59,258 bases of DNA, from positions 1 through 59,258 of IMG/VR virus record IMGVR_UViG_3300032239_000632. One strand, 5' to 3'. Position 1 is the first letter of the stretch. The number at the start of each line of letters is the position of its first letter. This DNA comes from a virus (Duplodnaviria > Caudoviricetes). The notes beneath the pieces are model-generated. The model was not told the DNA's origin. It searched no databases and worked only from the letters and a program-made list of their open reading frames with translations. A program made the translations under genes and the position numbers. Positions 9,337 through 54,724 of this stretch are shown piece by piece.

Positions 9337-9344
9337 AATTGTAT

Positions 9345-12143
9345 TTATTTAACTTTTAAGACGTTTGTGACAATATTTTTAGTATTTGAAGTAAATGCAG
9401 TATCTACTTTAATAGTATTAGCATTTACAAAAGTAACAGTTTTAGTCTCATCAAAATATAAATTGATTGTCACATTATTTGCAGTAACACCAAGAGTATT
9501 TTGAGTAATTAGATATTTACTATTTGATACACTTAATACGGTTTCTGTATTGCCAGTTGATAAGTAAATAATATCACCATCAAGAATATCATTAATAAAG
9601 TTACAAGTATTACCAAATACTGTATTAGAACCAAGTGATATATTAACTGTATTTGCAACATTACGATACACACCAGTAAAGATTACAACATCACCAACAT
9701 TGACATAATTCATTAAATTGGCAGTTGAATTTGTAGTTGCATTAGCACCATATACAATATTAAATTTTGTTGGTAATGCTTTTATTGTAATGCTTTGATT
9801 AACATCATTTGCAGAGACATTTTCAGAATTATTATCAATTCTTGTAACAAATGTTTTTGTACCTAACGGATGAACAATATCGTTTAAAGGTTTTTTAAAT
9901 TTATTGTAATCTGTCTGTGAACTAATTACATATGAAAAATTGTGATATTTGTTACCATCTTGCATAACTTTATCTGCACTCAAATGACCATCTGTATTCA
10001 AATAGATACCAGGATAACGAATCAAACCATTTTCAAATTTTGCAGTTGCTTTACCACGACCATCACCATATACTGTTGTGCTACCTAAAACAACATTACC
10101 TGATACTATACCATCATCAGAATGAATTGTTTTAGTTATATCAAGAGTTCCCCTATAATCAAACAATCTAATAAATCCAGTGCTTTGATTAAATTGATCA
10201 ACATATGCAGAAAATGTTGTTGTAAGATTACTTGATCCCTGATATATTTTTGTATTTGATACAAACAATTGTCCAGAAGTAACATTCTGTAAAGTTAAAT
10301 CCATATTTCTTAATGATATCATAGGAGCTTCAACATAATCATAACCATAACTAACTACACGTATAGAAGTTATAGCACCAATTCTTGAAGTGGATAATGA
10401 ATATTGTTCACCATCACCAAGAACTTCACTGACATACACATTAGCACCAGCGCCAGAAACTGTGTTTATTGTGATTGTTGGTAATGCATTTCTAGTATAT
10501 CCTTCACCACCCAATACATATGCATTTGAAGAATGATTATTAATTGTTACTGTTTTAATACCACTGTTGCCAGTATGTATAGCACTAACATATGCATTGG
10601 CACCATAACCAGAACCACCAGTAAATGTTAATGTTTGATTAACTGCATAATTACTACCACCATCTGCAATAATAATTCTTCCTAATGAACCTATCTTATA
10701 TAAATCATTTCTTACAATTTTATATACTGAAACACCAGAAACATCATTTGCAAAATTATTAGCAAAAGATATTGTATGCGTAGTAACTCCAGTAATTTGA
10801 AATATATCCTCCATCTTATTTACAACATATAATCTCACATAGTTACCAACTTCAAATGATGTAGTCAAATCTTGAGTTAAATCTGTTAATATATTTGTAT
10901 CTTTTACAATATTACAAGATGTTATAACAAGAACGTCATCATTAATTTCATTGTAAAAACTATAAGTATCTAAAGTTGGTTTTGCTCTGTATCCGCCACC
11001 ACCTTGATCTAATGAAACAAATGATAATGGATATACATTAAATGATTGATATGTGCCAATATTAGAAATTGTAATAGCATTAGCAACATTGATGTTTGCA
11101 TATAGTCCATTTAAAGTTTCAATGGACATATTTCTTAAATTTACTTTACGAACGACTGAAGTATCTACTAAATTTATAGATGCTTTTGCTTCTGCCCCAT
11201 ATGGCGCATTTTCAAATCCACCTTTAAAATCTAAAGTTGAAACTGATGCATCATAAGATGAACTTATTTCACTTGTCGTTCTAAATCCAAAACCTGGATT
11301 AGTCAATATAACTTCAGTAACAGAACCCTTTGTTGTATTACCAACGTATGCTAAAGCACCCACTGGATTATTTGCAGTTGGATTTAAACCACCTACAATA
11401 GTAACTGGATCACCATTATATGGTATTAATGGATCATATCCATTATAATACAAACCACGATTTAATGGATTAATTTTAATCTCTGATAATGCACCAATTA
11501 AACGACCAGATACAGTTACATCAACAACACCATTATTGTATGTTGCATCTACAGTTTCACCTGTTTCAAACAATCGTTCAACATTAGATACATAAACTTC
11601 AATGTATTTAATACCTAATTGACGATCAATTGATTCAATAACTTTTTCTACTACTGCAGTTGCTTTAGATATTCTACCTGTTATTTTTGTTTTTTCAATA
11701 TTAAAAATATTGTTGTCACTAGTATCAATTCTAAGTGCTAAAGGCAATACCCATTTACCATCAGATACTTTTAAGATATCATCTTTAGGATAATAAATGT
11801 CTATATTTTCATTATATAATGCACGAAATAAAAACTTTACTGAATCTTGTGTACCATTAGATTTATAAAATGTGGTAATTAATTTTAAAAATAATCTTTT
11901 ATCTGCCAGTATATTCTCTGGAAAATAAGGCATTAAATCTCTCTTTAACAAATTTAGATAATCATTATCTGCTGTATCTAAATCTATAGAATCATTTAAT
12001 GCTTTTATTTCATAACTAACTTGATTATTGGTTTCTAACCATTCATAATACTTTTGAAGAAATGTTACAAATATAGGATATTCTTCCCGAACAAATTCGG
12101 GTAATTGTCTCTCTACAATTTTAGAAGTTAAAACTTGATCCAT
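9345..12143 (-). CDS. gp7: Baseplate wedge initiator gp7-like
   Basis: QLPEFVREEYPIFVTFLQKYYEWLE, FYKSNGT..SVKFLFRALY, YHNFSYVI..VHPLG; lies between gp6 and gp8. Confidence 0.75.
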   Translation of the reverse strand: MDQVLTSKIVERQLPEFVREEYPIFVTFLQKYYEWLETNNQVSYEIKALNDSIDLDTADNDYLNLLKRDLMPYFPENILADKRLFLKLITTFYKSNGTQDSVKFLFRALYNENIDIYYPKDDILKVSDGKWVLPLALRIDTSDNNIFNIEKTKITGRISKATAVVEKVIESIDRQLGIKYIEVYVSNVERLFETGETVDATYNNGVVDVTVSGRLIGALSEIKINPLNRGLYYNGYDPLIPYNGDPVTIVGGLNPTANNPVGALAYVGNTTKGSVTEVILTNPGFGFRTTSEISSSYDASVSTLDFKGGFENAPYGAEAKASINLVDTSVVRKVNLRNMSIETLNGLYANINVANAITISNIGTYQSFNVYPLSFVSLDQGGGGYRAKPTLDTYSFYNEINDDVLVITSCNIVKDTNILTDLTQDLTTSFEVGNYVRLYVVNKMEDIFQITGVTTHTISFANNFANDVSGVSVYKIVRNDLYKIGSLGRIIIADGGSNYAVNQTLTFTGGSGYGANAYVSAIHTGNSGIKTVTINNHSSNAYVLGGEGYTRNALPTITINTVSGAGANVYVSEVLGDGEQYSLSTSRIGAITSIRVVSYGYDYVEAPMISLRNMDLTLQNVTSGQLFVSNTKIYQGSSNLTTTFSAYVDQFNQSTGFIRLFDYRGTLDITKTIHSDDGIVSGNVVLGSTTVYGDGRGKATAKFENGLIRYPGIYLNTDGHLSADKVMQDGNKYHNFSYVISSQTDYNKFKKPLNDIVHPLGTKTFVTRIDNNSENVSANDVNQSITIKALPTKFNIVYGANATTNSTANLMNYVNVGDVVIFTGVYRNVANTVNISLGSNTVFGNTCNFINDILDGDIIYLSTGNTETVLSVSNSKYLITQNTLGVTANNVTINLYFDETKTVTFVNANTIKVDTAFTSNTKNIVTNVLKVK

Positions 12144-14624: not shown

Positions 14625-14643
14625 GTGTTATTTATCTGTCTTT

Positions 14644-25868: not shown

Positions 25869-25946
25869 GATCTATTTATTCGCATTTTAACCAATATTTA
25901 ACAAAAAAAACATATAAGTATTGCTGTCCTTGGTTGATTTATAACT

Positions 25947-28720: not shown

Positions 28721-29274
28721 AATTTTAACTCCTTTGTTAGATCATTCAAATCACTCTGCTTCTTATAAAAAATGTGTCTGCCTATCTGTATAGTCTTAAG
28801 TAAGTTCCAACCTGGATTTACATAATCTGCATGATAGTATGTTGCACCTTCAGTCACATCATCTATAAATTCATAATTCATTAATACTCTTACTGCTATT
28901 TCACGTATACTATTATACAACAAAGTATCTGTGATTGTCAAGGGTTTATTTAAGTTTGCCCTCTCACACACCCAAGAAAATTGACATATATTATTTTTCT
29001 TCTGATGAACTACACTACAAATTGTCGGTGCATAGTTACCAGATGCTAAACGATTCAAAGTTACAAGTGCTACTGCTACCTTACCAACATCCGATTCATG
29101 TCCCGCTTCAAAGTAAATATTCTCTGCTAAACAATCAACTTGTTTTTTAACAGGTTCAGTTAAACTTCTATATGAAACATTGATCGGTAAGAAATAAGTA
29201 TTTGGTACATTAACTGATAATATAACTACAGAAAATGCTACACAAATACTCATCATGGTTAATGGTATTCGCAT
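28717..29274 (-). CDS. Cell wall hydrolase (SleB/Hydrolase_2)
   Basis: CLAENIYFEA, AVALVTLNR, CQFSW, GATYYHADYVNP.W, IGRHIFY; N-terminal anchor. Confidence 0.92.
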   Translation of the reverse strand: MRIPLTMMSICVAFSVVILSVNVPNTYFLPINVSYRSLTEPVKKQVDCLAENIYFEAGHESDVGKVAVALVTLNRLASGNYAPTICSVVHQKKNNICQFSWVCERANLNKPLTITDTLLYNSIREIAVRVLMNYEFIDDVTEGATYYHADYVNPGWNLLKTIQIGRHIFYKKQSDLNDLTKELKL

Positions 29275-29292
29275 TGTTTTCTCCCTATGATT

Positions 29293-29605
29293 GTGATAGG
29301 TTATTCTGTTACGAGGAAACCTATCGAAACCCTAAGTAGCCGTTAAGCTGCTAATTGATAAACGCTTTCGTTTGCATTTATTGATTTTACTTTTAACGAC
29401 TATCTGTGTCGTGTTGTCTGTTTCGTTACTCATTGCCCTGTCGAAACTATTCACCCCCATCAAAAACACACTGGTACTCTAAGCCTGTTATGACTATTGT
29501 AATCAGAAATAAGAACTGGTCTGCTTTCCCAATGTGTTTATGGTGGAGGTGGGGGGATTCGCACCCCCGTCCAGAACACCTTTTACTTCACTTCATACAA
29601 CAATT
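29293..29605 (-). ncRNA. ssrA: Circularly permuted (two-piece) tmRNA; tag peptide (A)ANESVYQLAA
   Basis: On the - strand the T-arm/acceptor GACGGGGGTGCGAATCCCCCCACCTCCACCA ends at 29541 and precedes the 5' end GGGGGTGAATAGTTTCGAC at 29458. The acceptor stem has G3.U70. Tag ORF at 29375-29343. Outer boundaries are approximate. Confidence 0.92.
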
Positions 29606-29620
29606 CTATTAAATATCCTA

Positions 29621-30070
29621 TTAGAAGGATACTTTAACACCTGCACCGATTGAATTACCATCAAATGATGATACACGACTTTGACCAATCTGATAACGAT
29701 AATCAATTGTTGCTGCTACATTCTTAACAATAGGATATGATAAACCAACGCCACCTGTTACAGCATATCCATCTTTACTAGTTTGATTATCAAGCATTGC
29801 GGCACCAGCTTTAACTGAAACTTGAACTGGACCAACTTTGGCAACATCATAAGCACTAACTAAACTATAACGATCCTGATTGTTTTTGCCTTTAGTAAAC
29901 TGGTCATAACCTAAAGTAGCAGTAACACTACCAAATTTTTGACCAACGGTAATACCTTGACTATTACGATCTGTACCACTATAATCTTTAGTTACATTAA
30001 CACCTACTTCTACGCTTTGTGCTGAACCAATAATTGCCATCAATGAAACTGCTAGAATAGACTTCTTCAT
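29621..30070 (-). CDS. Small outer-membrane beta-barrel protein (OmpA/Ail/Lom-like)
   Basis: Signal peptide MKKSILAVSLMA..AQS, amphipathic strands, C-terminal GVKVSF. Confidence 0.8.
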   Translation of the reverse strand: MKKSILAVSLMAIIGSAQSVEVGVNVTKDYSGTDRNSQGITVGQKFGSVTATLGYDQFTKGKNNQDRYSLVSAYDVAKVGPVQVSVKAGAAMLDNQTSKDGYAVTGGVGLSYPIVKNVAATIDYRYQIGQSRVSSFDGNSIGAGVKVSF

Positions 30071-38782: not shown

Positions 38783-39061
38783 ATGGACTTTTTCAAACTT
38801 GTAGCAGAATTAGGATTTCCAATTGCCGCAGCGATGGCTGGTGGATACTTCATTTTCTTAACTTTAAAATTTATATTGGCAGGTGTCATGAGTTCCATTA
38901 AAGGGTTAACTGGAATTATTGGTGCACTAGATAATAGAGTAAAGACAATGAATCATGACGTTATACGTATTGATACAATTGTTTCAAATGCTTTAGGATT
39001 AAAACCTGATACAAACCGAATTGCACGAGCAGACGGTAAAAATGATGCTAGGAGAGATTGA
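38783..39061 (+). CDS. Small membrane protein (paralog A)
   Basis: MDFFKLVAELGFPIAAA transmembrane helix plus coiled coil LDNRVKTMNHDVIRID. Confidence 0.75.
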   Translation: MDFFKLVAELGFPIAAAMAGGYFIFLTLKFILAGVMSSIKGLTGIIGALDNRVKTMNHDVIRIDTIVSNALGLKPDTNRIARADGKNDARRD

Positions 39062-39261: not shown

Positions 39262-40281
39262 ATGCAACCTATAAAATTACGTTGGTTAATTGCTCATACA
39301 CCAGCATATCTTTTTGTTAGAACTGCAGAAGCGTTTGCCGCAGAACTAGAAAAAGAATTGCCTGGGCAGTTTGAGATTGAAATTTTAACCATGAGAGAAT
39401 ATATAGAAAAGTATGGAGATATTCCAGAACTCAAAATGCGGTATGGAACTGTTGATGGAATTGAAAAGTTACCTAATAGTGATTTTTTTACTCCTGTTGA
39501 ATTGAATGATGCAAAGAAGAAATGGACTGCATTTTTTAATGGTATAAAAGATACTAAGATACATTTAAGTCAAACACAAGTGAGCATTGTTGGTTGGCAT
39601 CTTTATAAAAAATTATCAACTTTAGATTTACCATTTTTGTTTAATAGTCACGATCATGTAACAGAAGTATTGGATGGAGAAATTGGTGATAATCTGCGTA
39701 AAGAATTATTTGAAAAAACAAATATTAACGGTTTAGCATTTACCTATTCTGGTGGTTATCGTATTGTTGGTTCAAATCAACCAATTGAAAATCTTGAAGA
39801 GTTAAAGGATGTAAACATTACTACAACCCCAATGACTCAAACATTATTTGGAAAATTTGCTAAAAAAGCAACCAGTAAAATGAATCAAAAACTTGATGAA
39901 ACATCTGAACAAGTCACAAAAGGTGGTGCTATTGAAACTACATATTTACGGTTTGCAGGTAAAAATGTTCTTAAAACTAATCATAGTATGTTCTTGACAA
40001 CAATATTAGTTGGTGGATCATTTTTTAATACATTAACAAAAGAACAACAAGAAGTATTTCAAAAAACTGCAAAAATTGTTGCTAAGTTGGAACGTAAATG
40101 GTCATTAGAAGATGCACAAAAATATGAAGATGAAGCTGTATCTAAAGGAATTACTATTAAAGAAATTACTGTAGAAGAAAGTCAAAAACTAAAAGATGCT
40201 TCTCCAGATCAATATACAACTGCTTATACAATTATTGAAGGCAGTAAAGAATTAGTTAACAAAATTAAAAACAAAGGTTGA
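39262..40281 (+). CDS. TRAP transporter solute-binding (DctP-like) protein
   Basis: LDLPFLFNSHDH...LDGEIG, LAFTYSGGYR, PI..LEELK; no signal peptide. Confidence 0.75.
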   Translation: MQPIKLRWLIAHTPAYLFVRTAEAFAAELEKELPGQFEIEILTMREYIEKYGDIPELKMRYGTVDGIEKLPNSDFFTPVELNDAKKKWTAFFNGIKDTKIHLSQTQVSIVGWHLYKKLSTLDLPFLFNSHDHVTEVLDGEIGDNLRKELFEKTNINGLAFTYSGGYRIVGSNQPIENLEELKDVNITTTPMTQTLFGKFAKKATSKMNQKLDETSEQVTKGGAIETTYLRFAGKNVLKTNHSMFLTTILVGGSFFNTLTKEQQEVFQKTAKIVAKLERKWSLEDAQKYEDEAVSKGITIKEITVEESQKLKDASPDQYTTAYTIIEGSKELVNKIKNKG

Positions 40282-40285
40282 TAAA

Positions 40286-41059
40286 ATGAAAAAAATAATT
40301 TATGCTTTATTATTTGTTTGCGCTAATGTATTAGCAAATCCTATTGACGATAACTGCCCACAATTCGTTTTACGTGGTGCACCAGTGAGTAAATTAACTC
40401 AGAACACTACAAAATACCTATGTAAAAAAAACTATGCTATTCATTACAGAAACGATACCAAAACTGCAGAATATGTTGTTGAACATCTTACATTACCTGC
40501 AGTAACAGGTACAGTTAAACGCCAAGATGATTTTAGACCTGATCCCGATATTCCTAAACAAAATCAATCTTTACTATCAGACTATGCTGGCAACCCATAT
40601 GATAGAGGTCATCTATCACCAGCAGGTAACAATACACAATCAGCAATTGTTATGAGTGAGAGTTTCTTTTTATCTAATATGGTACCACAAGTACCTAATC
40701 ACAATCGTGGTATTTGGAAACAATTAGAAACCTATACTCGTAATTGGGTAATTGAAGGTGGTGATCTGTATGTTGTTACAGGAACATTCTATGCGCCCGA
40801 ACATTTAACTATTGGTGCTAATAAAGTTGGTGTACCTACTCATTTATGGAAAGTAATTGTTGACCGTAAGAATGTTAAATCAATTGCATTTTTCTTTCCT
40901 AATGAAGCATTACCAGTACCAGATTTGCCAAAGTATGCAGTATCAATTGCAGATATTGAAGGTATAACACAAATTGATTTTATGCCTCAGTTACCACCTG
41001 AATTGAAGAGATTAGAAGAAAACAAACCAGACTTAACTAAGTGGAGTGGATTGCACTAA
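40286..41059 (+). CDS. Exported DNA/RNA non-specific endonuclease (NucA/EndoG family)
   Basis: Signal peptide; YDRGHLSPA, ESFFLSNMVPQ...NRGIWKQLE, VPTHLWKV. Confidence 0.93.
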   Translation: MKKIIYALLFVCANVLANPIDDNCPQFVLRGAPVSKLTQNTTKYLCKKNYAIHYRNDTKTAEYVVEHLTLPAVTGTVKRQDDFRPDPDIPKQNQSLLSDYAGNPYDRGHLSPAGNNTQSAIVMSESFFLSNMVPQVPNHNRGIWKQLETYTRNWVIEGGDLYVVTGTFYAPEHLTIGANKVGVPTHLWKVIVDRKNVKSIAFFFPNEALPVPDLPKYAVSIADIEGITQIDFMPQLPPELKRLEENKPDLTKWSGLH

Positions 41060-41379
41060 TGGATGCTGTAGAACTCGTCAACAAATATGGTTTTCCTATT
41101 GTCGCTGCGGGTGGCATGGGATACATGATTTACTTTGTATGGGAATGGGCTACTAAAGAAGTTAAACCTGTTCTCAGTGAAGCAAATGCAACTTTAATCG
41201 GTTTAATTGATAGAATCAGAATGTTAGATAATGATTTAATTAGATTGAATCAAAAGGTTGATGTTGTTCTACATCTCCGTGGTAAAACAATTGAACACGA
41301 ACGGGTATTGGCAGAACAAAAAATTAACGCATTTGTGGATGAAGAGGATAAGAAAACTGCATCAGCCGGTGAAGGTTAG
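41059..41379 (+). CDS. Small membrane protein (paralog B)
   Basis: MDAVELVNKYGFPIVAAGG transmembrane helix plus LIDRIRMLDNDLIRL. Confidence 0.75.
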   Translation: MDAVELVNKYGFPIVAAGGMGYMIYFVWEWATKEVKPVLSEANATLIGLIDRIRMLDNDLIRLNQKVDVVLHLRGKTIEHERVLAEQKINAFVDEEDKKTASAGEG

Positions 41380-41409: not shown

Positions 41410-41568
41410 TCATTTGTTTTGTTCTTGATCCCGTTTTCTATCTTCAACCTTTCCTATTTGAACTTCATGATGCGTATCTGGTTCAACATATTTGTTCCAA
41501 ACTTTTTGTCCTGTGTTCCAACCAAATACAGTAATAAATCCAGCTGCAAGATACGTTAATATAACCAT
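41410..41568 (-). CDS. Small membrane protein (52 aa)
   Basis: Hand translation MVILTYLAAGFITVFGWNTGQKVW...; SD AAGGA. Confidence 0.55.
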   Translation of the reverse strand: MVILTYLAAGFITVFGWNTGQKVWNKYVEPDTHHEVQIGKVEDRKRDQEQNK

Positions 41569-41578
41569 GAATATTCCT

Positions 41579-43585
41579 TTATTTTGATGTTGCTTTATAA
41601 GTTCCTGCCCAATCGGCTGGTTTACCTTCTTCTAATCTATCTATCATCAATTTATAATATTCACACATTTCTTTATTCATGATCATCTGTGTTCTTGCAG
41701 TTACTAATGCTTCATCCCAGTTACCTTCATAGTACCAATACAGAAACGCATTTTGTCCTTCTGCTTGCTTTGACAAGGTATATATCTTAACACCTTCTTT
41801 TTTACCTTTAACTGCAATACAATCTAATTCAAATACATCATATTCATCCTGAACTAATCTGGCGGTTTCTGGACCCAATATAATACGTACCCCATAATTT
41901 TTTGACTGGCCTTCAAGGCGGCTTGCAAGATTAACTCCATCACCAAGACAAGTATAATCAAAACGCTGAGAGGAACCCATATTGCCGACAACAACAATAT
42001 CACTATTAATACCCAACCCCATACCAAACGCTGGTATACCTTCTTTAGTAACTTCTTCATTAAATCCATCTAAACTCTCCATCATCTCTAGTGCGGTTTT
42101 AACTGCCATTTTTGCATGATTTGGTTCATCTAGTGGTGCATTCCAAAATGCCATCTGTGCATCACCGATATACTTATCTAGTGTTCCATTGTTTTCTAAA
42201 ATCTTTGCTGTCATTGCAGTCATGTAACGATTCATAATTTTAGTAAGACCTTGAACATCTTTACCATAATGTTCACTGATACTTGTAAATCCCCTTACAT
42301 CGGTAAACATAATTGATAATTGTCTTGATTCACCACCTAATGTTAATAACTCAGGATTCTTTTGTAATTTTTCAACAAGTGCAGGTGATAGATATGTACC
42401 AAACTGTTTCTTGATTTGCATCTTTTGTAAAAATTCAGATACAAACTTTACGGCATAACAATGTAGACTAACCAAAACAAAACATACAACCAAAGCAGTT
42501 GAGTCCAGTAGGGACAAAAACGTATCATAATAAACAAAACTACCACCAACACTGCCAGCAATAACCAATGCTGCAAATCCGATCCCCACATATGTCCACC
42601 TTGATAAAAGAATAATTAATAAACTACCAAAAATCATTAATAATATTTCAGCGCCATCTGCCCAATCAGGTCTTTGAATATTAGTTTGGCTAGTTAAAGT
42701 ATCTAAAACTGCCGCTTGAAGATAATGAGGGTAGACTGCGCCGATAGAAGTAGCGACCGGGTTATTAAACCCTTTCGCTGTGAGACCAACAATGACGATT
42801 CCGCTATCGAAGGACTTAGGTAATTTAGTAAGGGAATGTTCTTTAGGTCTTGATTTCCAATCAACCCAAATTCTACCGAACTCATCTGTTGTGATTTTTC
42901 CAAATTTAGGAATTCTAACTGCTTCAATTCCTGTCTCTGTAACTTTAACTTGAAAACTTGGATCTCCTGAGGCAACTCGCAATGTTTCAAGACTGATACT
43001 TGGATACAATTTTTCTTCAAATCTGACGACCATTGGTATTCTTCGGGTGACGCCATCAATTTCGGGAAGTGTATTAACAACACCAATGCCAGCAGCACTT
43101 TCATTTATTATCCTCGTGTTAGGTTGAATACTATTATATTCAATACCTACTGTACCAGAACCAATAACTGATACACCAGGTCTGAATGGATCATAATTTA
43201 CTTTAATTTGATCATCACTTCCTGTATGAGGAAGAATTACTGGATATTTTTTTAATGTTTGTGCTAATTGAGCGTCCTGACCAAAGCGATCACGCTCAGG
43301 CATAAAGATGTTAAAGACAACCAAGCCAGCGTTGCGAGAATACAGATCAGAAATGATTTCTGAATATTTGTTTCTTGGGAATGGGAATTGACCTTCTTTT
43401 TGAATAAACTCATCGTCTATGTTTACTACATGTATCTGTTTGGATACAGTAGTCTCCTTATTAGTTATTAACGTATCAAAATAACGAAGTCTTACCGATT
43501 CAACAAATGAGGGATTAACGATTCTAATGCATACTAATAATATTAATGTTAGTATTGCAGTCCACGGAGATAATAATTTTTTCAT
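41579..43585 (-). CDS. CHASE2-domain class III adenylate/guanylate cyclase
   Basis: TM-CHASE2 (FPFPR, DGVTRRIP)-3TM-cyclase with FTDVRGFT, DKYIGDA, RFDYT.LGD.VNLASRLEG. Confidence 0.95.
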   Translation of the reverse strand: MKKLLSPWTAILTLILLVCIRIVNPSFVESVRLRYFDTLITNKETTVSKQIHVVNIDDEFIQKEGQFPFPRNKYSEIISDLYSRNAGLVVFNIFMPERDRFGQDAQLAQTLKKYPVILPHTGSDDQIKVNYDPFRPGVSVIGSGTVGIEYNSIQPNTRIINESAAGIGVVNTLPEIDGVTRRIPMVVRFEEKLYPSISLETLRVASGDPSFQVKVTETGIEAVRIPKFGKITTDEFGRIWVDWKSRPKEHSLTKLPKSFDSGIVIVGLTAKGFNNPVATSIGAVYPHYLQAAVLDTLTSQTNIQRPDWADGAEILLMIFGSLLIILLSRWTYVGIGFAALVIAGSVGGSFVYYDTFLSLLDSTALVVCFVLVSLHCYAVKFVSEFLQKMQIKKQFGTYLSPALVEKLQKNPELLTLGGESRQLSIMFTDVRGFTSISEHYGKDVQGLTKIMNRYMTAMTAKILENNGTLDKYIGDAQMAFWNAPLDEPNHAKMAVKTALEMMESLDGFNEEVTKEGIPAFGMGLGINSDIVVVGNMGSSQRFDYTCLGDGVNLASRLEGQSKNYGVRIILGPETARLVQDEYDVFELDCIAVKGKKEGVKIYTLSKQAEGQNAFLYWYYEGNWDEALVTARTQMIMNKEMCEYYKLMIDRLEEGKPADWAGTYKATSK

Positions 43586-44667
43586 CTTTGTATAATAGTA
43601 ATTGTTGTTGTTCCTCCACTATTAATTCTTTGATACAATGGAGCACCACTTTGTGTAATATTTAGTATTAAATTTGCTTCTTTTCCTACGATCACTTGTG
43701 CAAAATGAACACCACCTTTTGTTAATACCAATCTATCATATTCATCAATAGCATATATTAAACCAGATGCCGGATCATATCCAGGTAACATTGATAACTC
43801 TGCAGTCAATACATCTTGACTGGCAAACAATGCCGCATTAACTTGGTCTAATACATTTGGTAATAAATCAAAATCTAAAAAATTAATATCTAAAGCATTA
43901 TATCTTAATACATCTTGATCTAATACAGATGTCTTTAATAAATCTTTATTCAAAAAATTTACATCAAGTGCGTTTCTATTTTCTGGACCTTTTTGTTCAT
44001 TTTGTTCTTTCTGAATCTCTCTTGGTGGATCAATAATTAACATATTATTAATATTCATTTGGTCTATATTAACAATAACCGGTCTTGTTGGTGGTGTAGT
44101 TAATGATGTTACTAATGTTGCTTGATATGCAACATCCATGTGAACTGTACCTGAATCATTTGTAACTGATATTGCACCAGTAACACATGCATTTGCATCA
44201 CATGACGGCAGCAACATAACCATACTTCTACCTAATTCATCTACTGTCATTGAAAAATCTGTACCTCTTACTGCTATTGTTGCAGTTGGTGTTTGTATGT
44301 TTACACTTTGAGGATTACTTTTTGCTATTTGACCACTAGCATATCTAGCAGTACCTAATGCTACTTTCATTGCTAATTTGCCTGTTCCCTTTGCAGGGTC
44401 GTAGACAAAATCATCAATGATTAATTTTGATTGTTCTGTAATTCTTACTGTTGTGGCATCTTCAAATGTCAATTGTGCTTTAGACTTAGCAGTTGATATA
44501 GTATCATTCATTTCAATACCAGTATTTACCGCACTGGATATTGATTTTTTATTTCTAATAATTTCAGTGGGACCGGTTTGTTCAGTTACTTTACCGACAC
44601 CACCGAAACTAATTAGACTGGTGAATACTAATACTGTTGCTATTACCAGTTGAATTAACTGTGACAC
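43582..44667 (-). CDS. FecR-domain periplasmic protein
   Basis: LTFEDAT.VRITEQS.LIIDDFVYDP, TPTATIAVRGTDF; likely GTG start near 44667 with signal peptide. Confidence 0.85.
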   Translation of the reverse strand: MSQLIQLVIATVLVFTSLISFGGVGKVTEQTGPTEIIRNKKSISSAVNTGIEMNDTISTAKSKAQLTFEDATTVRITEQSKLIIDDFVYDPAKGTGKLAMKVALGTARYASGQIAKSNPQSVNIQTPTATIAVRGTDFSMTVDELGRSMVMLLPSCDANACVTGAISVTNDSGTVHMDVAYQATLVTSLTTPPTRPVIVNIDQMNINNMLIIDPPREIQKEQNEQKGPENRNALDVNFLNKDLLKTSVLDQDVLRYNALDINFLDFDLLPNVLDQVNAALFASQDVLTAELSMLPGYDPASGLIYAIDEYDRLVLTKGGVHFAQVIVGKEANLILNITQSGAPLYQRINSGGTTTITIIQR

Positions 44668-45205
44668 TTTTTGCCGTTGTTCCACTTTGTGTAACTCCAA
44701 TTGTATTTGTGTTTCCGGTTGCAGTAATATAAGCATTTGCTGTGCCAGTATTTGTTGATGTATGCGTAATAGTATTAGTATCACCAACAACTGTAATTTC
44801 ACTTATATGTGATCCTCCAGAACCCAAATTTGTTGTTACTGTGTTATCATCACCAGTAATAATTTGCTTTATTGTTGATCCAGAACATGTAGCTGTTGAA
44901 GATGTTCCACATGTGATAGATTGTAAATTGTTATTGCCATGTGTGGTAACAGTCGTATTCGTTGCGGCACCATTTACAATCATTGCTAATGTATTGTTAT
45001 CACCAATTTGTTCTATTGTAACTGTATTAGAACCACCACCTATGTAGGCGGAAACTAGTGAATCTCCAATAGCATTTCCAACACCATCTTGTGTAATGGT
45101 AACCGTAGAACTGTCGCCCACTTGTTCAACATACAATTCATTAGCAAATACATTATTAGCAAATAACAACAAAGCCATAATGATATAGCCTGTTATTTTT
45201 TTCAT
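44609..45205 (-). CDS. Curlin-repeat (CsgA/CsgB-like) secreted protein
   Basis: Signal peptide; repeats EQVGDSS, TQDGVGN, EQIGDNN, TGDDN, VGDTN, TGNSN. Confidence 0.75.
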   Translation of the reverse strand: MKKITGYIIMALLLFANNVFANELYVEQVGDSSTVTITQDGVGNAIGDSLVSAYIGGGSNTVTIEQIGDNNTLAMIVNGAATNTTVTTHGNNNLQSITCGTSSTATCSGSTIKQIITGDDNTVTTNLGSGGSHISEITVVGDTNTITHTSTNTGTANAYITATGNTNTIGVTQSGTTAKSVTVNSTGNSNSISIHQSN

Positions 45206-45987
45206 TTCTGTTCTTCCTTTTGTTTGAACTTCCATATACCTTTTTGTTCACCATCTATAATCATTTGAAACACAGCATGTTCTATTGCTACACGAACAGC
45301 GTATGTCGTTGGTTCATTTAATGCGTTTCCATTCTCTAATTCTAAAGCATGAGTACCTGCATCAATAAACTTCATCACACCTACATTATGTGCAGTGCTA
45401 TAAATCGTCTTAGATACAGAATTAGTCAACATTACTTCTCCACTGGTTACACTAATTAACCGTATAGAAATAACAACTTCATCAACTCTGTATTGCTGAC
45501 TTGCACCAATTCCTAAAAATCTTGCACCATTACCACCAGAACGAATATTACTATCATATCCAATAATACCACCTTCAATCATTACACCTGCAACTGTCAA
45601 TGGTTTTAATGGCTTTGCTTCTTTACCTTCATATACTTCTCTTTGATTCCTAATCAATTGCCGTTCTTTAACAAGATTCTCTAATCCAACTCTTTCAACA
45701 ACTTTGAACCAATTCTTTGAATCTTGTAATGCTTTAATTAAAAATACTTCTGCGCCTTGTGTTACTGCTTTACTAAACAGAGCCATCTTATCACTAGATT
45801 TGTTTTGTCCTGTTCTATCTAAAAAACCATATACAGCAATTGCAAGCGGGGGTCCATCTAAATCTGGCATTTTATCCAATAAAGATTCTTTAACGGTCAA
45901 CTTGACCGGTTCTTCTTGCATATATTCCATTTGTTTAGATGCACACCCCGACAACATAATAACTAACAAAATAACATAATATTTCAT
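45202..45987 (-). CDS. csgG: Curli secretion channel lipoprotein CsgG
   Basis: Lipobox LSGC; AVYGFLDRTGQ, AVTQGA, WFKVVER.GLENLVKERQLIR, GGIIGYDSN, NEP. Confidence 0.93.
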   Translation of the reverse strand: MKYYVILLVIMLSGCASKQMEYMQEEPVKLTVKESLLDKMPDLDGPPLAIAVYGFLDRTGQNKSSDKMALFSKAVTQGAEVFLIKALQDSKNWFKVVERVGLENLVKERQLIRNQREVYEGKEAKPLKPLTVAGVMIEGGIIGYDSNIRSGGNGARFLGIGASQQYRVDEVVISIRLISVTSGEVMLTNSVSKTIYSTAHNVGVMKFIDAGTHALELENGNALNEPTTYAVRVAIEHAVFQMIIDGEQKGIWKFKQKEEQK

Positions 45988-45988
45988 A

Positions 45989-48034
45989 TTAGAAGAATAT
46001 TCTTAATTTGAATATCATAGAATCAGTTTTGTTACCTTCTTTTTGTTGTTGTGATATTTGTATACCTGCATTACTATTTTTCTGCAATTCATAAAATGCA
46101 CCAACCGAGGCAGTTAAATAACCATCTGTTGTTGAACTTAACTGACCAGTAACACTAATCTTGTTATCAAACTTCTTACGGATCATTGCACCAAACTCAG
46201 CATAATCAAAACTTCTTGAATTACTATCTACTGATCTGGCACTTTGAATACTACCTTGTTCAGTGTAACTATTTACTTTTGTTGTACCAAATGTATAACC
46301 AGCAAATAGTCTAATCATTTGTGAAAGCTCTGGACTATAAACTTTATTTGATAACCAACTATCTGTTCCTTTTGTTGAATAGTAATTTCTAAATAGTCCT
46401 TCAATATTTCTTACTGAACCAATATCATTACTTGCACTACCAATATTAGTTGATAAAATCAAATCTTTAGGCAATTTGTAAACACTATACAATCCAAAAT
46501 GTTGCTTTTCTTGTTTTGTAAGACTATCTACACCTGGCATTCTTGTTGATACTGTTCCATATTGAGCGCCAATCTTAAAATCAGAATTTATATCTTTATC
46601 AAAAGCAATTGCGGCAATATCACTCTTAGAACTATAACCATCTGCCATTGAAGTTTTCATATTGCCTATTGTAGTGTAAAATGTTCCATTGTCTGTCTTG
46701 TAACCATCTTGACGAAACGGATCCATATCTAAACTACGATTGATACCTTTGTTGAGATCAGACAATTGAGCTTGTTGATCAATACGTCCAGAGAAACTAT
46801 CATTGGCAACTGAAGTGTCTACATTATTAACTAATGATGATGCAGCACTTGTAGCACTGTCAGCTGTTGTTACAGAACCATCACTCCATGTTGTTGTGGT
46901 GCGAACTAATGTGGTAATTGTTCGTGTGAATGGAGTTGTAACATTAGTGGTTGTTTCTCTTGCGATAATTTGCTTTGTTGCATTTTCACTTGCAACATGA
47001 TGTGCAGTGCTGGCAGTGATTACAGGCAATGCAGTATTAACAACTGTATTATCTGAAACTGTAACTGTAGCAGTGCTTGTGCTAACTACTGTAGGTGCGG
47101 CAGGTTTTGTAGGAGTAACTCCAACCATATCGCAACTTGATGTGCAACCAGGAACAACACCAGGAGTACCACCACCAGCACCCGAATTTACAGCAGTAGC
47201 ACCAGCAGTTAATGTTGATGGACCAAAAATATATGCATATTGAAATTTAACAATATCACCAACTGCGACTGATGGAACAAGAAAACCTAAACCAATTGTA
47301 TAGTCACCAGTGCCATTATTGACACCATTGTAATATTGAATTGGATCGGTTGTCCATCCACTGCTAATACCTGCACCAACATTAGATGCAGCAGAATATA
47401 AACCTAATGCATACTTTGATGATAGTGCTTCAGAGAATACAACTTGCTTTACACCAATAGGACTAAACCCTAAAGTATTGGTTGTTGCAGAACTATCACC
47501 TGCGGCAGCTCTAGCATCTGGATCAGTAAAACGACCAAAGTAAAGATTAGTCATTGCTACCGATGATGTTAATGTTGTAGTGATATCAACAAATTTTTGA
47601 TTGTTATTAAAACGAACATCGTTGATTAAACTGTAACCATTACCGTTACCAGTCCAAACTGCACGATTATCAAATGTAGAACCTGAATAAGCAATTCCAC
47701 TATAGTTAGTTAAAATACCACCAGTGATAGAAGTAGCACCAGTGTTATTATTTGTTTGTGTTATAACTGTACCCGCACCATTCGTATACTTAACAGTGAA
47801 CCCCTCAAACGGAGTTCCTGGAGTTAAATAATCGTATGCTGTATTAAATGTTCTTGTACCGGTATTATCATAGAGAATACCAGGACTTACAGTTCCTTTA
47901 CTACCTATTGTACCATAATCACTCACGCCAATTTTAATATAGTCGCCTGTGAGTGCAAAAATCGAACCAGTTGTTTGTGCATATAAACATGACGAAAAAC
48001 ATAACAGTAAACTTGTTATAATTTTTCTAAACAT
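45989..48034 (-). CDS. Autotransporter-like outer-membrane protein (passenger, Thr-rich stalk, beta-barrel)
   Basis: Signal peptide, beta-rich N-terminal domain, T/S/P linker, C-terminal amphipathic strands ending FKLRIFF. Confidence 0.65.
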   Translation of the reverse strand: MFRKIITSLLLCFSSCLYAQTTGSIFALTGDYIKIGVSDYGTIGSKGTVSPGILYDNTGTRTFNTAYDYLTPGTPFEGFTVKYTNGAGTVITQTNNNTGATSITGGILTNYSGIAYSGSTFDNRAVWTGNGNGYSLINDVRFNNNQKFVDITTTLTSSVAMTNLYFGRFTDPDARAAAGDSSATTNTLGFSPIGVKQVVFSEALSSKYALGLYSAASNVGAGISSGWTTDPIQYYNGVNNGTGDYTIGLGFLVPSVAVGDIVKFQYAYIFGPSTLTAGATAVNSGAGGGTPGVVPGCTSSCDMVGVTPTKPAAPTVVSTSTATVTVSDNTVVNTALPVITASTAHHVASENATKQIIARETTTNVTTPFTRTITTLVRTTTTWSDGSVTTADSATSAASSLVNNVDTSVANDSFSGRIDQQAQLSDLNKGINRSLDMDPFRQDGYKTDNGTFYTTIGNMKTSMADGYSSKSDIAAIAFDKDINSDFKIGAQYGTVSTRMPGVDSLTKQEKQHFGLYSVYKLPKDLILSTNIGSASNDIGSVRNIEGLFRNYYSTKGTDSWLSNKVYSPELSQMIRLFAGYTFGTTKVNSYTEQGSIQSARSVDSNSRSFDYAEFGAMIRKKFDNKISVTGQLSSTTDGYLTASVGAFYELQKNSNAGIQISQQQKEGNKTDSMIFKLRIFF

Positions 48035-48044
48035 TTTTTTCCTT

Positions 48045-48503
48045 TTAAAAACCAAATGTGCCAATAGGTACAGTTATATCTGTTCTATTGCCATTTGTTT
48101 CAGTTATTGTTAATGTTACATCTGTGCTTGATTTAACCCATGATATATTGGTACCCTGAAAATCCATTGTACCAGATGTTGCACCATTATCGGTAAACAT
48201 AGAATCTGCTAATTGTTTTGATAATTGTGCATAAATTCGTGATTCAACATTAACCAAAAATTTAGCCAAGTTAGTGCTAGCCGCAGCACGAGTAGCCGCA
48301 TCGGCGGCGGCTTTGGCATCATCTTTTAATTTCTGTTTGCGTTGTTGTTCAATCTGCTCAATAGTCAGGACATGCGAAGAATATCCTGAACCCGAAAAGG
48401 CAGGACTATTGAATTGTTGAATCAACTCACCGGCACTTGCAGTAAAAACCGCAAAGAATGTATAATAACAAATAACACAAATTACTTTGGTTATTGTTCT
48501 CAT
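48045..48503 (-). CDS. csgF: Curli assembly protein CsgF
   Basis: Signal peptide then ELIQQFNSPAFSG, similar to the CsgF F.NP.FGG motif; VESRIYAQLSKQL; T.ITVP. Confidence 0.82.
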   Translation of the reverse strand: MRTITKVICVICYYTFFAVFTASAGELIQQFNSPAFSGSGYSSHVLTIEQIEQQRKQKLKDDAKAAADAATRAAASTNLAKFLVNVESRIYAQLSKQLADSMFTDNGATSGTMDFQGTNISWVKSSTDVTLTITETNGNRTDITVPIGTFGF

Positions 48504-48507
48504 GGAA

Positions 48508-49041
48508 CTATTTATGTTTTATTATTATGGTTTCGTGAGTATATAGTTGGGTTGTGTCTTTATGTCTTTTTAGTGAAAATTTATCAAAATTCATGTAATT
48601 ATCAGCGTCACCAGAGTCAAAAAGATAGATTTTCTCTTCTTGGCAATCAATTTTCGTCACTACAGACCAATGGTGCCACGGGGGTCCAAACGAAACAATT
48701 GCAACTTTTTTCTCATTTAGATGTTCATTTAGACACGCAAAATATTCATATTGATCATCAAATATATCATCTTCAAATATCACCTCAAATTCAATCTTTT
48801 TTTCTTTTTGAGTTATTTTATGTAATATTTTTGTAATGTTCTCTAAGTAAGTCCCCTCAGCGTAATATTTGTGAAAAAGATTTGGATTAATTTCCAACAT
48901 CTCTCTCATCAATTTTTCAGCACGATTTTGATTATACTTTGAATTTAGATAATAGAAAGAATTGATAATAGAATAGAATCCACAAAGACCATCAAGTAGT
49001 CCTTGTTTGTATGGTTCTTTTTTAATTATCTTTTTATTCAT
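48508..49041 (-). CDS. Papain-like (C39-type) cysteine peptidase
   Basis: YKQG..DGLCGFYSIIN, HWSVV, YLFDS give a Q/C/H/D arrangement. Confidence 0.6.
   Translation of the reverse strand: MNKKIIKKEPYKQGLLDGLCGFYSIINSFYYLNSKYNQNRAEKLMREMLEINPNLFHKYYAEGTYLENITKILHKITQKEKKIEFEVIFEDDIFDDQYEYFACLNEHLNEKKVAIVSFGPPWHHWSVVTKIDCQEEKIYLFDSGDADNYMNFDKFSLKRHKDTTQLYTHETIIIKHK
48509..48515 (-). promoter_or_regulatory. Late-type promoter ATAAATA directly before csgF
   Basis: Same motif precedes gp8 (9342), gp25 (14629), gp48 (21063) and gp2 (25873). Confidence 0.6.
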
Positions 49042-49054
49042 AACTCTATATATT

Positions 49055-49129
49055 TGGCCTGCCTACCCGGAGTCGAACCAGGAAATACGCCTTAGAAGGG
49101 CGTTGTTATATCCATTTAACTATAAGCAG
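49055..49129 (-). tRNA. tRNA-Arg(UCU)
   Basis: Cloverleaf, anticodon loop CTTCTAA, GTTCGACTC, encoded CCA. Confidence 0.92.
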
Positions 49130-49133
49130 AAAA

Positions 49134-49209
49134 TGGTCGGTGATGCAAGGTTTGAACTTGCGACCTCATGCTCCCAAAGCACGTATTCTACCAACTGAAC
49201 TAATCACCG
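49134..49209 (-). tRNA. tRNA-Pro(UGG)
   Basis: CGGTGAT acceptor, loop TTTGGGA, CCA. Confidence 0.93.
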
Positions 49210-49217
49210 ATAAATTT

Positions 49218-49291
49218 TGGTGCTCCGTGACAGAATTGAACTGCCAATTGATGATTACAAATCAACCGTTATACCATTTAACTAACAGAGC
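49218..49291 (-). tRNA. tRNA-Thr(UGU)
   Basis: GCTCTGT acceptor, loop TTTGTAA, CCA. Confidence 0.92.
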
Positions 49292-49297
49292 AAAATT

Positions 49298-49385
49298 TGG
49301 CGGAAGCTGTGAGATTCGAACTCACGGACCCTTTCAGATCGGCAGTTTTCAAGACTGCTGGTTTAAACCTCTCACCCAAACTTCC
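49298..49385 (-). tRNA. tRNA-Ser(UGA)
   Basis: Long variable arm, loop CTTGAAA, GTTCGAATC, GCCA. Confidence 0.93.
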
Positions 49386-54561: not shown

Positions 54562-54724
54562 AATACTATTTATTAATTGAACCCCTGAAATACTTTATAA
54601 ACAAAATCAAAACCAGACAATTTAAAAGTCTGAGTAAAATTTCCCGATTTTATCTGATACCAACCATTGGATAATTCATATAAGGTAACTTTTCTTTTAT
54701 TAACAACTCTAGATAAGATATACA

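Follow-up and report, generated by a model that had tools for sequence, protein, structure and literature searches.

The window analyzed here is the whole of IMG/VR record IMGVR_UViG_3300032239_000632 (59,258 bases, ∼35% complete, ∼32% G+C). It carries a freshwater T4-like phage's copy of a viral module in which curli export genes are joined to genes for a FecR-domain protein and an adenylate cyclase with a CHASE2 receptor domain. We read the module as two joined units, one for curli export and one a FecR/CHASE2 sensor, which lie in a single gene string, would probably be expressed with the late genes, and may be coupled through a cue that is the curlin itself, sensed by way of the FecR tail. 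From the sequence evidence, we give this reading a probability of about 0.5. The linkage of FecR and cyclase genes to viral csg genes has been published before, and the core idea is not new; the present analysis adds co-occurrence counts, the topology of FecR, the pairing of FecR with CHASE2 proteins in bacteria, clusters in bacterial metagenome-assembled genomes (MAGs), a single cyclase clade, a putatively curlin-like tail on FecR, and an autotransporter.

An earlier note on this DNA, made from its letters alone, described six packed minus-strand genes (csgF, a beta-barrel adhesin gene, csgG, a curlin-like gene, fecR, and a CHASE2 cyclase gene). All six are real open frames on the minus strand with the Pfam or modeled domains named there, and the gene identities, signal peptides, lipobox, and transmembrane (TM) helices are borne out by profile searches and by reading the frames. 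The string is longer than had been supposed: eight close-packed minus-strand frames span 41410-49041, with a gene for a 177-residue protein before csgF and one for a 52-residue protein after the cyclase gene (Table 1). The FecR frame had been started at 44802; GTG 44685, behind GGAG, is the likelier start and gives 367 residues. The curlin gene, its start likewise corrected, most likely begins at ATG 45205. The csgG stop and the curlin start overlap, fecR ends and the cyclase gene begins within a shared ATGA, and the 3′ end of the curlin gene shares 77 nucleotides (44609-44685) with the 5′ end of fecR, the part coding for the FecR signal peptide running over the last curlin repeat in another frame. 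The curlin/FecR overlap is ∼74 to 77 nucleotides in the window, L009, and L012 (L numbers are our handles for the viral and bacterial loci fetched for comparison), 23 nucleotides in phage Melnitz, and absent in phage HTVC008M.

CsgF matches its Pfam family over profile positions 5-132 of 132 (E = 1.3e-16), and its mature N terminus, GELIQQFNSPAFSGSG, resembles what we take to be the E. coli motif of the peptide that inserts into the CsgG barrel; a phmmer search with the protein against solved structures found no CsgF. CsgG (Pfam E = 1.1e-51) is a lipoprotein that can be aligned from end to end with E. coli CsgG (3x2r; E = 3.8e-48). In the constriction loop, where we take both a Phe and an Asn to have roles in CsgG, the Phe of 3x2r is retained and the Asn is replaced by Leu. 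In many relatives (L007, L008, L011, L012, L014, and others; e.g., L008:9914-11209), the csgG frame continues for 80 to 150 codons past the CsgG domain, and their CsgG may be extended at the C terminus, unlike that of the window. The curlin protein is a secreted curlin-repeat subunit (Curlin_rpt E = 1.7e-8, in four stretches), in which the alignment shows about eight conserved Q-x-G-x-x-N rungs and two conserved Cys. Both csgF and csgG occur in one phage genome, here with an autotransporter gene in between, and the mention in the earlier note of csgF and csgG in aquatic T4-like phages agrees with the HTVC008M and Melnitz records and with the literature. Its observation that csgE is missing also stands: a search for CsgE (PF10627) gave no match in four of four records or genomes (the window, a 96%-complete relative, and two bacterial genomes with the cluster), with a positive E. 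coli control. Neither CsgC nor CsgD was seen in the window.

A scan of viral contigs with the window CsgG gave 75 loci, which form 44 clusters at 95% CsgG identity. The sample is biased to relatives of the window CsgG (47 to 93% identity), and counts are given over loci with enough flank. Within it, csgG is accompanied by CsgF in 72 of 72 loci, by curlin in 64 of 64, by FecR in 55 of 55, and by the cyclase in 49 of 49. The order is also the same across the 75 related loci, with curlin after csgG, then FecR, and then the cyclase. The possibility, raised in the earlier note, that related phages might have csgF and csgG without FecR and cyclase genes is not borne out by these loci. The cluster is found as well on very large viral contigs (L012, L031, and L034, 317 to 344 kb; L023 and L072, 289 to 300 kb), two of which (L012 and L034, 344 kb each) are rated 99 to 100% complete, one with terminal repeats. 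The module is not confined to the ∼150-kb pelagimyophage-like genomes.

T4-like baseplate and tail genes are present in the window (PHROGs). The cultured phages nearest to its gp6-like protein are Melnitz, a Methylophilales phage (42% identity), and Pelagibacter phage Mosig (40%), with cyanomyophages at 31 to 36%; a megablast search of window positions 20000-41000 against phages gave zero matches. The 7.1-kb stretch of the cluster was represented by 0.56 to 0.76 of its sampled words in ten runs from ten studies labeled freshwater or lake water, counts that rest on sampled words and leave out a study that is possibly the source. No RNA runs were among the listed runs containing the stretch.

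The conservation of the curlin gene bears on an explanation in which CsgG and CsgF form only a pore, with no fibers, either for solute uptake, as suggested by Zaragoza-Solas et al. (2020; PMC7029224), or for lysis timing in a pinholin- or secretin-like role, as proposed from structural modeling by Buchholz et al. (2022; PMC9004378). That modeling, the report in the same paper that Melnitz-infected cells did not clump, the lack of a CsgE gate in the genomes searched, and the small TM protein pairs that recur beside the cluster would all fit a pore alone. However, a signal-peptide curlin-repeat protein with about eight conserved rungs follows csgG in all 64 loci, and the premise that fiber genes are absent was corrected by Wittmers et al. 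(2022; PMC9599517) and does not hold for the window. We regard a pore without fibers as quite unlikely.

The FecR protein has a periplasmic FecR domain (Pfam E = 7e-12). Its homologues (18 aligned, plus further listed frames) begin with a cleavable signal peptide, after which the mature N terminus is conserved as (V/I)GK(V/I)xEQ(T/S)GP, and two Cys are invariant or nearly so across the 18. The cytoplasmic anti-sigma part and the membrane anchor are both absent from all of these sequences, and the protein therefore cannot relay a signal as E. coli FecR does. No TonB-dependent transducer or extracytoplasmic function sigma factor is found among the annotated neighbors, no search having been aimed at them.

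Past the FecR domain come Leu-rich LDxNxLDxDLL repeats and then a C-terminal beta part ending ...NITQxG....QxVNxGGTTxIxIxQ(K/R). We compared the last 80 residues of FecR (18 sequences) with the phage curlins (17 sequences) by profile-profile alignment in hhalign. The tail aligned over 42 columns to the last curlin repeats with a score of 27.8 (P = 4.4e-4; probability, 34%), and none of 150 column shuffles reached that score (mean, 11.2; maximum, 26.1). This is a suggestive lead that the C-terminal 45 residues of FecR may be curlin-repeat-like.

The cyclase matches CHASE2 over residues 14-325 (E = 2.9e-38) and Guanylate_cyc (E = 1.1e-19) in Pfam. Its topology, read by eye from the hydrophobic stretches, is one TM helix, a periplasmic CHASE2 domain, three TM helices, and a cytoplasmic cyclase. 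In alignments to 2w01, 6fht, and 3r5g and to 17 phage homologues, the catalytic motifs read FTDVRGFT, GTLDKYIGD, and DYTCLGDGVNLASRLE, and the six class III catalytic residues are intact: both metal Asp, the Lys/Thr substrate pair, the Asn, and the Arg. We take the Asp residues to bind metal, the Lys/Thr pair to be that of the ATP-using class IIIb, and the Asn and Arg to act in the transition state. At the position of this Lys, the guanylate cyclase Cya2 (2w01) carries Glu, and its engineered adenylate cyclase form (6fht) carries Lys. We infer that the product is cyclic AMP (cAMP). Since a search for the cNMP_binding domain gave no match in any of 3 near-complete relatives, whatever cAMP is made would have to act through receptors of the host, and a phage-encoded cAMP receptor was rejected. 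Two subtypes of the phage cyclases can be told apart at window residues 462-562, one with Lys/Thr and Asn (the window type) and the other with Lys/Asp and Ser replacing the Asn.

To place these genes among bacteria, we scanned species-representative genomes with the FecR alignment and ran profiles made from the phage proteins over the resulting 70 loci. The full csgF-csgG-curlin(s)-FecR-CHASE2 cyclase cluster is present in five of them (L081, L082, L083, L086, and L088), the cluster runs to the contig end in L084, L087, and L089, and L085 has curlin and FecR only, with no cyclase in reach. L082 and L083 belong to Caulobacteraceae MAGs (54 to 57% G+C) and L088 to a Henriciella MAG (a 396-kb contig with 53% G+C), and their neighbors are ordinary bacterial genes, coding for TonB-dependent receptors, glycosyltransferases, FAA hydrolase, and amidohydrolase. 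L081, a 103-kb contig with 32% G+C filed under a Luteolibacter MAG, has a cyclase that nests in the freshwater phage clade; this contig probably comes from a phage and ended up in a bacterial MAG during binning. FecR adjoins a CHASE2 protein, without csg genes, in fourteen further loci, and forty-seven loci, mostly from Devosia, show FecR only with the phage-protein profiles. Beside the cyclase of the Caulobacteraceae locus L082, 445 nucleotides past it, there is a PycTM effector gene (L082:13575-14165, plus strand; Pfam E = 8.8e-25, PADLOC E = 9.6e-18); a jackhmmer search across all fetched frames found PycTM in this locus only, and PycTM was dropped as a general partner.

For an even sample, we took 301 genomes of one alphaproteobacterial order, with the Henriciella MAG at the center. 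Matches to the phage-type FecR profile lay at 31 places in 25 genomes, and CHASE2 was found in 117 genomes. Twenty-two of the 31 FecR places lie within 3 kb of a CHASE2 match, eight do not, and one could not be judged. Where such FecR-CHASE2 regions were fetched, the neighbor combined CHASE2 with a cyclase in 18 of 20 and had another output in 2, and no csg genes were found in these 20 regions. FecR beside a CHASE2 cyclase is a common alphaproteobacterial pair, also apart from curli. Full-length phage-type FecR was found only in the Henriciella genome at the center of the sample, and the composite cluster is rare there; with 1 of 301 genomes, the idea of a native and common alphaproteobacterial operon is weakened.

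We also built a quick maximum-likelihood tree of 48 cyclases, in which 27 curli-linked sequences (20 from phages and 7 from MAG contigs) were set against 21 FecR-paired bacterial ones. The curli-linked cyclases form one clade (support of 100 in the Shimodaira-Hasegawa-like approximate likelihood ratio test), which indicates that the export and sensor units are inherited together. The high-GC bacterial cyclases form a clade of their own beside two phage groups; as the three groups make a trichotomy with long branches at the root, the tree does not tell whether transfer ran from bacteria to phages or the reverse.

The bacterial pairs are relevant to the view that FecR is a curli accessory, acting as a periplasmic chaperone or surface nucleator in place of CsgE, CsgC, or CsgB, while the cyclase is an independent host-manipulation gene. 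FecR genes lie by CHASE2 cyclase genes in bacteria with no csg genes nearby (18 of 20 regions), so the pairing is independent of curli, and this counts against an accessory. Its attractions are the missing CsgE match, the single curlin of the window versus two in HTVC008M and Melnitz, the possible curlin-like tail, the overlap of ∼75 nucleotides between curlin and FecR genes in the window clade, and L085, which has curlin and FecR without a cyclase in reach. On balance, we consider it unlikely.

The earlier note placed the string behind a late-type ATAAATA promoter. T4-type late promoters carry TATAAATA about 6 nucleotides ahead of the transcript start. The motif is present before csgF, but the site reads CATAAATA and so differs from the exact T4 octamer. 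ATAAATA is depleted fourfold in the window (12 observed versus 52.7 expected), and the exact octamer TATAAATA occurs once where 15.5 copies are expected. Five of the 12 ATAAATA copies lie 4 to 5 nucleotides before the ATG of frames of 135 to 441 residues, one of them a 441-residue frame in the baseplate gene run. Given the depletion and the spacing to ATG, ATAAATA behaves like a functional start signal. The spacing would mean leaderless or near-leaderless late transcripts, and its being common to csgF and the baseplate-run frames hints at expression with the late genes.

Under our preferred reading, the CsgG lipoprotein and CsgF would assemble into a channel in the outer membrane of the infected cell, exporting the curlin-repeat protein, which may then polymerize into surface fibers, and the autotransporter would display a further surface domain. 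The soluble periplasmic FecR protein and the inner-membrane CHASE2 cyclase would convert a periplasmic cue into cytoplasmic cAMP that acts on host receptors. That cue may be curlin itself, as periplasmic load or secretion state, which FecR would sense with its curlin-like C-terminal repeat. The single cyclase clade and the FecR tail favor some coupling of export and sensor, with the tail as a possible physical link. A more specific proposal, which we put forward as doubtful, is that FecR is the periplasmic curlin handler of a CsgE-less curli system and also presents the ligand to CHASE2, binding unpolymerized curlin and setting cyclase activity. If so, an infected or bacterial cell would read its own amyloid export state as cAMP, CHASE2 would have its first defined input, and an ancient curli-FecR-CHASE2 cyclase unit would extend across Alphaproteobacteria, T4-like phages, podoviruses, and 300-kb phages. 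The proposal bears both on phage biology and on the ligand of CHASE2 domains, for which a 2016 paper stated that none was known (PMC5192318).

Several observations weigh against a coupled export-sensor module. The curlin-like tail is a 42-column alignment with a probability of 34%, and the best shuffle scored 26.1 versus 27.8. The AlphaFold2 model of FecR is poor (mean predicted local distance difference test [pLDDT] score, 58); Foldseek returned nothing for it at E ≤ 0.001 and, at E = 0.02, a weak resemblance in fold to 4m0h, a putative anti-sigma factor. The cyclase gene has the opposite orientation in 3 of 54 loci, and many relatives have 0.7 to 7 kb of unrelated cargo between FecR and the cyclase, so that coupling at the operon level looks looser in the relatives than in the window. 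The cyclase domain also matches the PADLOC models of the Pycsar cyclase PycC (E = 1.7e-23); such a match is expected because PycC and adenylate cyclases are one fold family, but it leaves cAMP a presumed product. The absence of clumping in Melnitz cultures speaks against conspicuous fiber-mediated aggregation. Finally, the Sinorhizobium meliloti FecR-domain gene smc02177, whose locus number adjoins that of the CHASE2 cyclase gene cyaD1 (SMc02176) and which is the one cyaD1-neighboring gene of its type to have been studied, is needed for cAMP-dependent control of secondary infection and is activated by cAMP via Clr, and the plant signal is perceived without it (PMC5498481); FecR proteins of this type may thus be outputs rather than inputs. 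A complex prediction for CHASE2 residues 24-311 with FecR residues 31-367 scored 0.00 in two runs, the controls were not folded, and the result counts neither way.

The earlier note saw in the cluster a single trans-envelope circuit, in which a CsgG/CsgF pore or filament is the sensor head and an external cue passes through FecR and CHASE2 to a cyclic nucleotide that tunes lysis or aggregation. The linkage that it rests on is firm, with FecR and cyclase genes beside csgG in every locus that could be judged, and strict co-inheritance, the single clade of curli-linked cyclases, and the possible curlin-like tail are in keeping with it. There is also a tested precedent in S. meliloti, where perception requires the outer-membrane barrel protein NsrA, which feeds the CHASE2 cyclases CyaK and CyaD1/CyaD2 (PMC7529298, PMC13001267). 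The relay along one pathway is disfavored, however, as FecR has neither membrane anchor nor anti-sigma part and smc02177 is dispensable for perception. In addition, CsgG is known as an export channel and not as a receptor, the cluster is unconnected to lysis genes in the window, and no TonB-box or STN-type partner is seen among the annotated neighbors, at which no search for a TonB-dependent transducer was aimed. We find the circuit improbable, and that it would sense contact or superinfection is purely conjectural.

The 681-residue protein encoded between csgF and csgG matched no Pfam family even at E values up to 10 and no PHROG. We built its AlphaFold2 model on an alignment of thirteen homologues from related viral loci, all of which have a signal peptide and end in Phe. 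The model (mean pLDDT, 71; 80 to 90 in the C-terminal barrel region) places in order a beta-sandwich N-terminal domain, an extended beta region rich in Thr and Ser, a helix (residues 420 to 443), and twelve strands (451 to 680). Foldseek matched the C-terminal part to NalP (1uyo; E = 8e-11, target TM-score 0.80), followed by EstA, Hbp, EspP, BrkA, and AIDA-I. By its modeled architecture, the protein is a type Va autotransporter, and the adhesin label given to it in the earlier note is a guess; Pfam, PHROG, and Atlas give no lead for the passenger. Homologues found by phmmer are present in 13 of 42 loci with enough flank, either in the FecR-cyclase gap or between csgF and csgG, and the autotransporter is a recurrent optional member of the module.

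Cargo genes are found in the gap between FecR and the cyclase, a slot that measures 0 to 7 kb across the loci; in the window, where the two genes overlap, it holds no second curlin. Second curlins were found in L001, L002, L040, and L063 only. Other cargo includes signal-peptide proteins of 850 to 1,160 residues ending in Phe; those of 1,100 to 1,160 residues at L014:12975-16316 (with an F5/8 type C [discoidin] domain), L029:13071-16580, and L033:12979-16377 end in ...TKGF and are probably further surface-displayed barrel proteins. The slot also takes metallophosphoesterase and glycosyltransferase genes, a PBP-like solute-binding protein gene (L054:12438-13472), and small membrane-protein pairs (L007, L049, and L051) like that of the window at 38783-39061 and 41059-41379. 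In L057, L059-L062, L064-L068, L070, L071, and L075, it contains signal-peptide proteins of 237 to 254 residues whose likeness to the endonuclease beside the window cluster was judged by eye from the N termini only.

Such cargo suggests another explanation, an envelope-guard or superinfection-exclusion island in which a Pycsar-like cyclic nucleotide, a secreted nuclease, and surface proteins block competing phages. The nuclease, glycosyltransferase, and phosphoesterase genes in or beside the cluster would agree with it, as would the PADLOC match to PycC and the PycTM gene behind the cyclase of L082. Yet PycTM occurs in that one locus among all fetched frames, no Pycsar effector (PycTM or PycTIR) is found among the window proteins, the PADLOC hit is unspecific within the shared fold family, and the Lys/Thr pair fits ATP. 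An exclusion island is very improbable.

At the ends of the string and beyond it, the assignments are more tentative (Table 1). The 177-residue protein matched nothing in Pfam or PHROG; an Atlas feature search led to clusters named "Peptidase C39 domain-containing protein" (0.97), which is a lead only, and among the fetched loci its homologues are confined to L004, L005, L079, and L080. The 52-residue TM protein has no family match, and its homologues are confined to the nearest relatives, L004 and L005. The endonuclease encoded convergently beside the cluster may act on periplasmic or extracellular DNA, and the small TM protein on its far side has no Pfam match. A block of four tRNA genes (Arg-TCT, Pro-TGG, Thr-TGT, and Ser-TGA; 49055-49385, minus strand) lies directly upstream of the cluster. 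The window also encodes a two-piece (permuted) tmRNA at 29252-29633 (minus strand) with the tag ANESVYQLAA, and Melnitz, too, has a tmRNA near its curli genes.

Table 1. Positions of the cluster genes, neighboring genes, and ATAAATA motifs in the window
Feature	Position	Strand	Basis or remark
Possible C39-like cysteine peptidase, cytoplasmic, 177 residues	48508..49041	-	4 nucleotides upstream of csgF; first gene past tRNA block
csgF, signal peptide, 152 residues	48045..48503	-	Pfam CsgF
Type Va autotransporter (by model), 681 residues	45989..48034	-	AlphaFold2 and Foldseek; between csgF and csgG
csgG, outer-membrane lipoprotein channel subunit, 261 residues, lipobox LSGC	45202..45987	-	Pfam CsgG
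Curlin-repeat fiber subunit, 198 residues, signal peptide	44609..45205	-	Curlin_rpt
Secreted periplasmic FecR-domain protein, 367 residues	43582..44685	-	Pfam FecR
CHASE2 receptor class III adenylate cyclase, 668 residues	41579..43585	-	Pfam CHASE2 and Guanylate_cyc
Single-TM protein, 52 residues, final gene of string	41410..41568	-	Open frame
Secreted DNA/RNA non-specific endonuclease, signal peptide, convergent neighbor	40286..41059	+	Pfam Endonuclease_NS, E = 1.3e-49
DctP-type solute-binding protein	39262..40281	+	Adjoins cluster
Small TM protein	38783..39061	+	Pairs with 41059-41379 (+); pair type recurs beside cluster in relatives
ATAAATA motif, late-promoter-like or start signal	48509..48515	-	5 nucleotides before csgF ATG, over stop of 177-residue gene
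Five ATAAATA copies near ATG	9342-9348, 14629-14635, 25873-25879, 48509-48515, 54567-54573	-	Spacing 4 to 5 nucleotides

Phage curli clusters are widespread in aquatic viruses. Zaragoza-Solas et al. reported a "curli operon," with no FecR or cyclase in the main text, and did not find it in freshwater SAR11 myophages (PMC7029224). In viral type VIII secretion system (T8SS) clusters of podo- and myoviruses, including marine pelagiphages, Wittmers et al. described genes for curlins, FecR, an adenylate cyclase, and a histidine kinase; every one of the 65 GOV2.0 stations yielded such clusters, as did metatranscriptomes, and the authors inferred that the clusters originated in Alphaproteobacteria (PMC9599517). 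Their paper states that FecR, kinase, and cyclase are not within bacterial T8SS operons, and its main text does not mention CHASE2; its figures or supplement may already show bacterial operons with FecR and adenylate cyclase or with extra genes, e.g., an autotransporter. Apart from the papers cited here, our literature searches turned up none that deals with such phage clusters. The window extends the module beyond marine pelagiphages and shows that its gene set can include an autotransporter, and the comparative results recast FecR and the CHASE2 cyclase as a preexisting bacterial sensor pair, with the whole six-gene unit also on bacterial contigs.

The closest known counterparts are HTVC008M (NC_020484) and Melnitz (MZ577097), which share the order csgF, csgG, curlin, FecR, and cyclase on one strand, with no csgE, csgC, or csgD. 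The window cyclase is 37 to 38% identical, and its gp6 ∼40 to 42% identical, to those of Melnitz, HTVC008M, or Mosig. Unlike HTVC008M and Melnitz, which have two curlins each, the window has one; it adds the autotransporter between csgF and csgG, and its FecR and cyclase genes abut directly. Compared with the module of Wittmers et al., the window cluster is found in freshwater runs, and its relatives include viral contigs of 289 to 344 kb. Where their podovirus form has a histidine kinase before csgF, the window has the C39-like lead gene, and a search for HATPase_c gave no match in either of 2 records (the window and the 96%-complete relative). The second curlin that is frequent between FecR and cyclase in their myovirus form is lacking in the window.

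With the CsgBAC-CsgDEFG system of E. coli and Salmonella, the window shares CsgG, the CsgF family, and the Curlin_rpt repeats, but it differs in having no CsgE match, two conserved Cys in the curlin, and the added FecR, cyclase, and autotransporter. The autotransporter resembles the type Va proteins NalP, EstA, Hbp, and EspP in its signal peptide, passenger, linker helix in a 12-strand barrel, and C-terminal Phe, whereas it has no Pfam-level match and is encoded inside a phage curli cluster. On the sensor side, the S. meliloti NsrA-CyaD1/D2/CyaK-Clr cascade likewise has a CHASE2 class III cyclase encoded next to a secreted FecR-domain protein and an outer-membrane barrel in the pathway; it includes the Crp-like Clr, for which the near-complete phage relatives have no counterpart. 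In the biofilm-switch operon of Burkholderia ("BiofilmReg") and Pseudomonas aeruginosa, the gene for a LysM/FecR (COG4254) protein adjoins that for a CHASE2 histidine kinase (PMC5192318). There, too, a periplasmic FecR-domain protein is encoded next to a CHASE2 sensor, but the output is a histidine kinase and response regulator and the FecR protein carries LysM, whereas in the window the output is a cyclase and LysM was not detected with Pfam.

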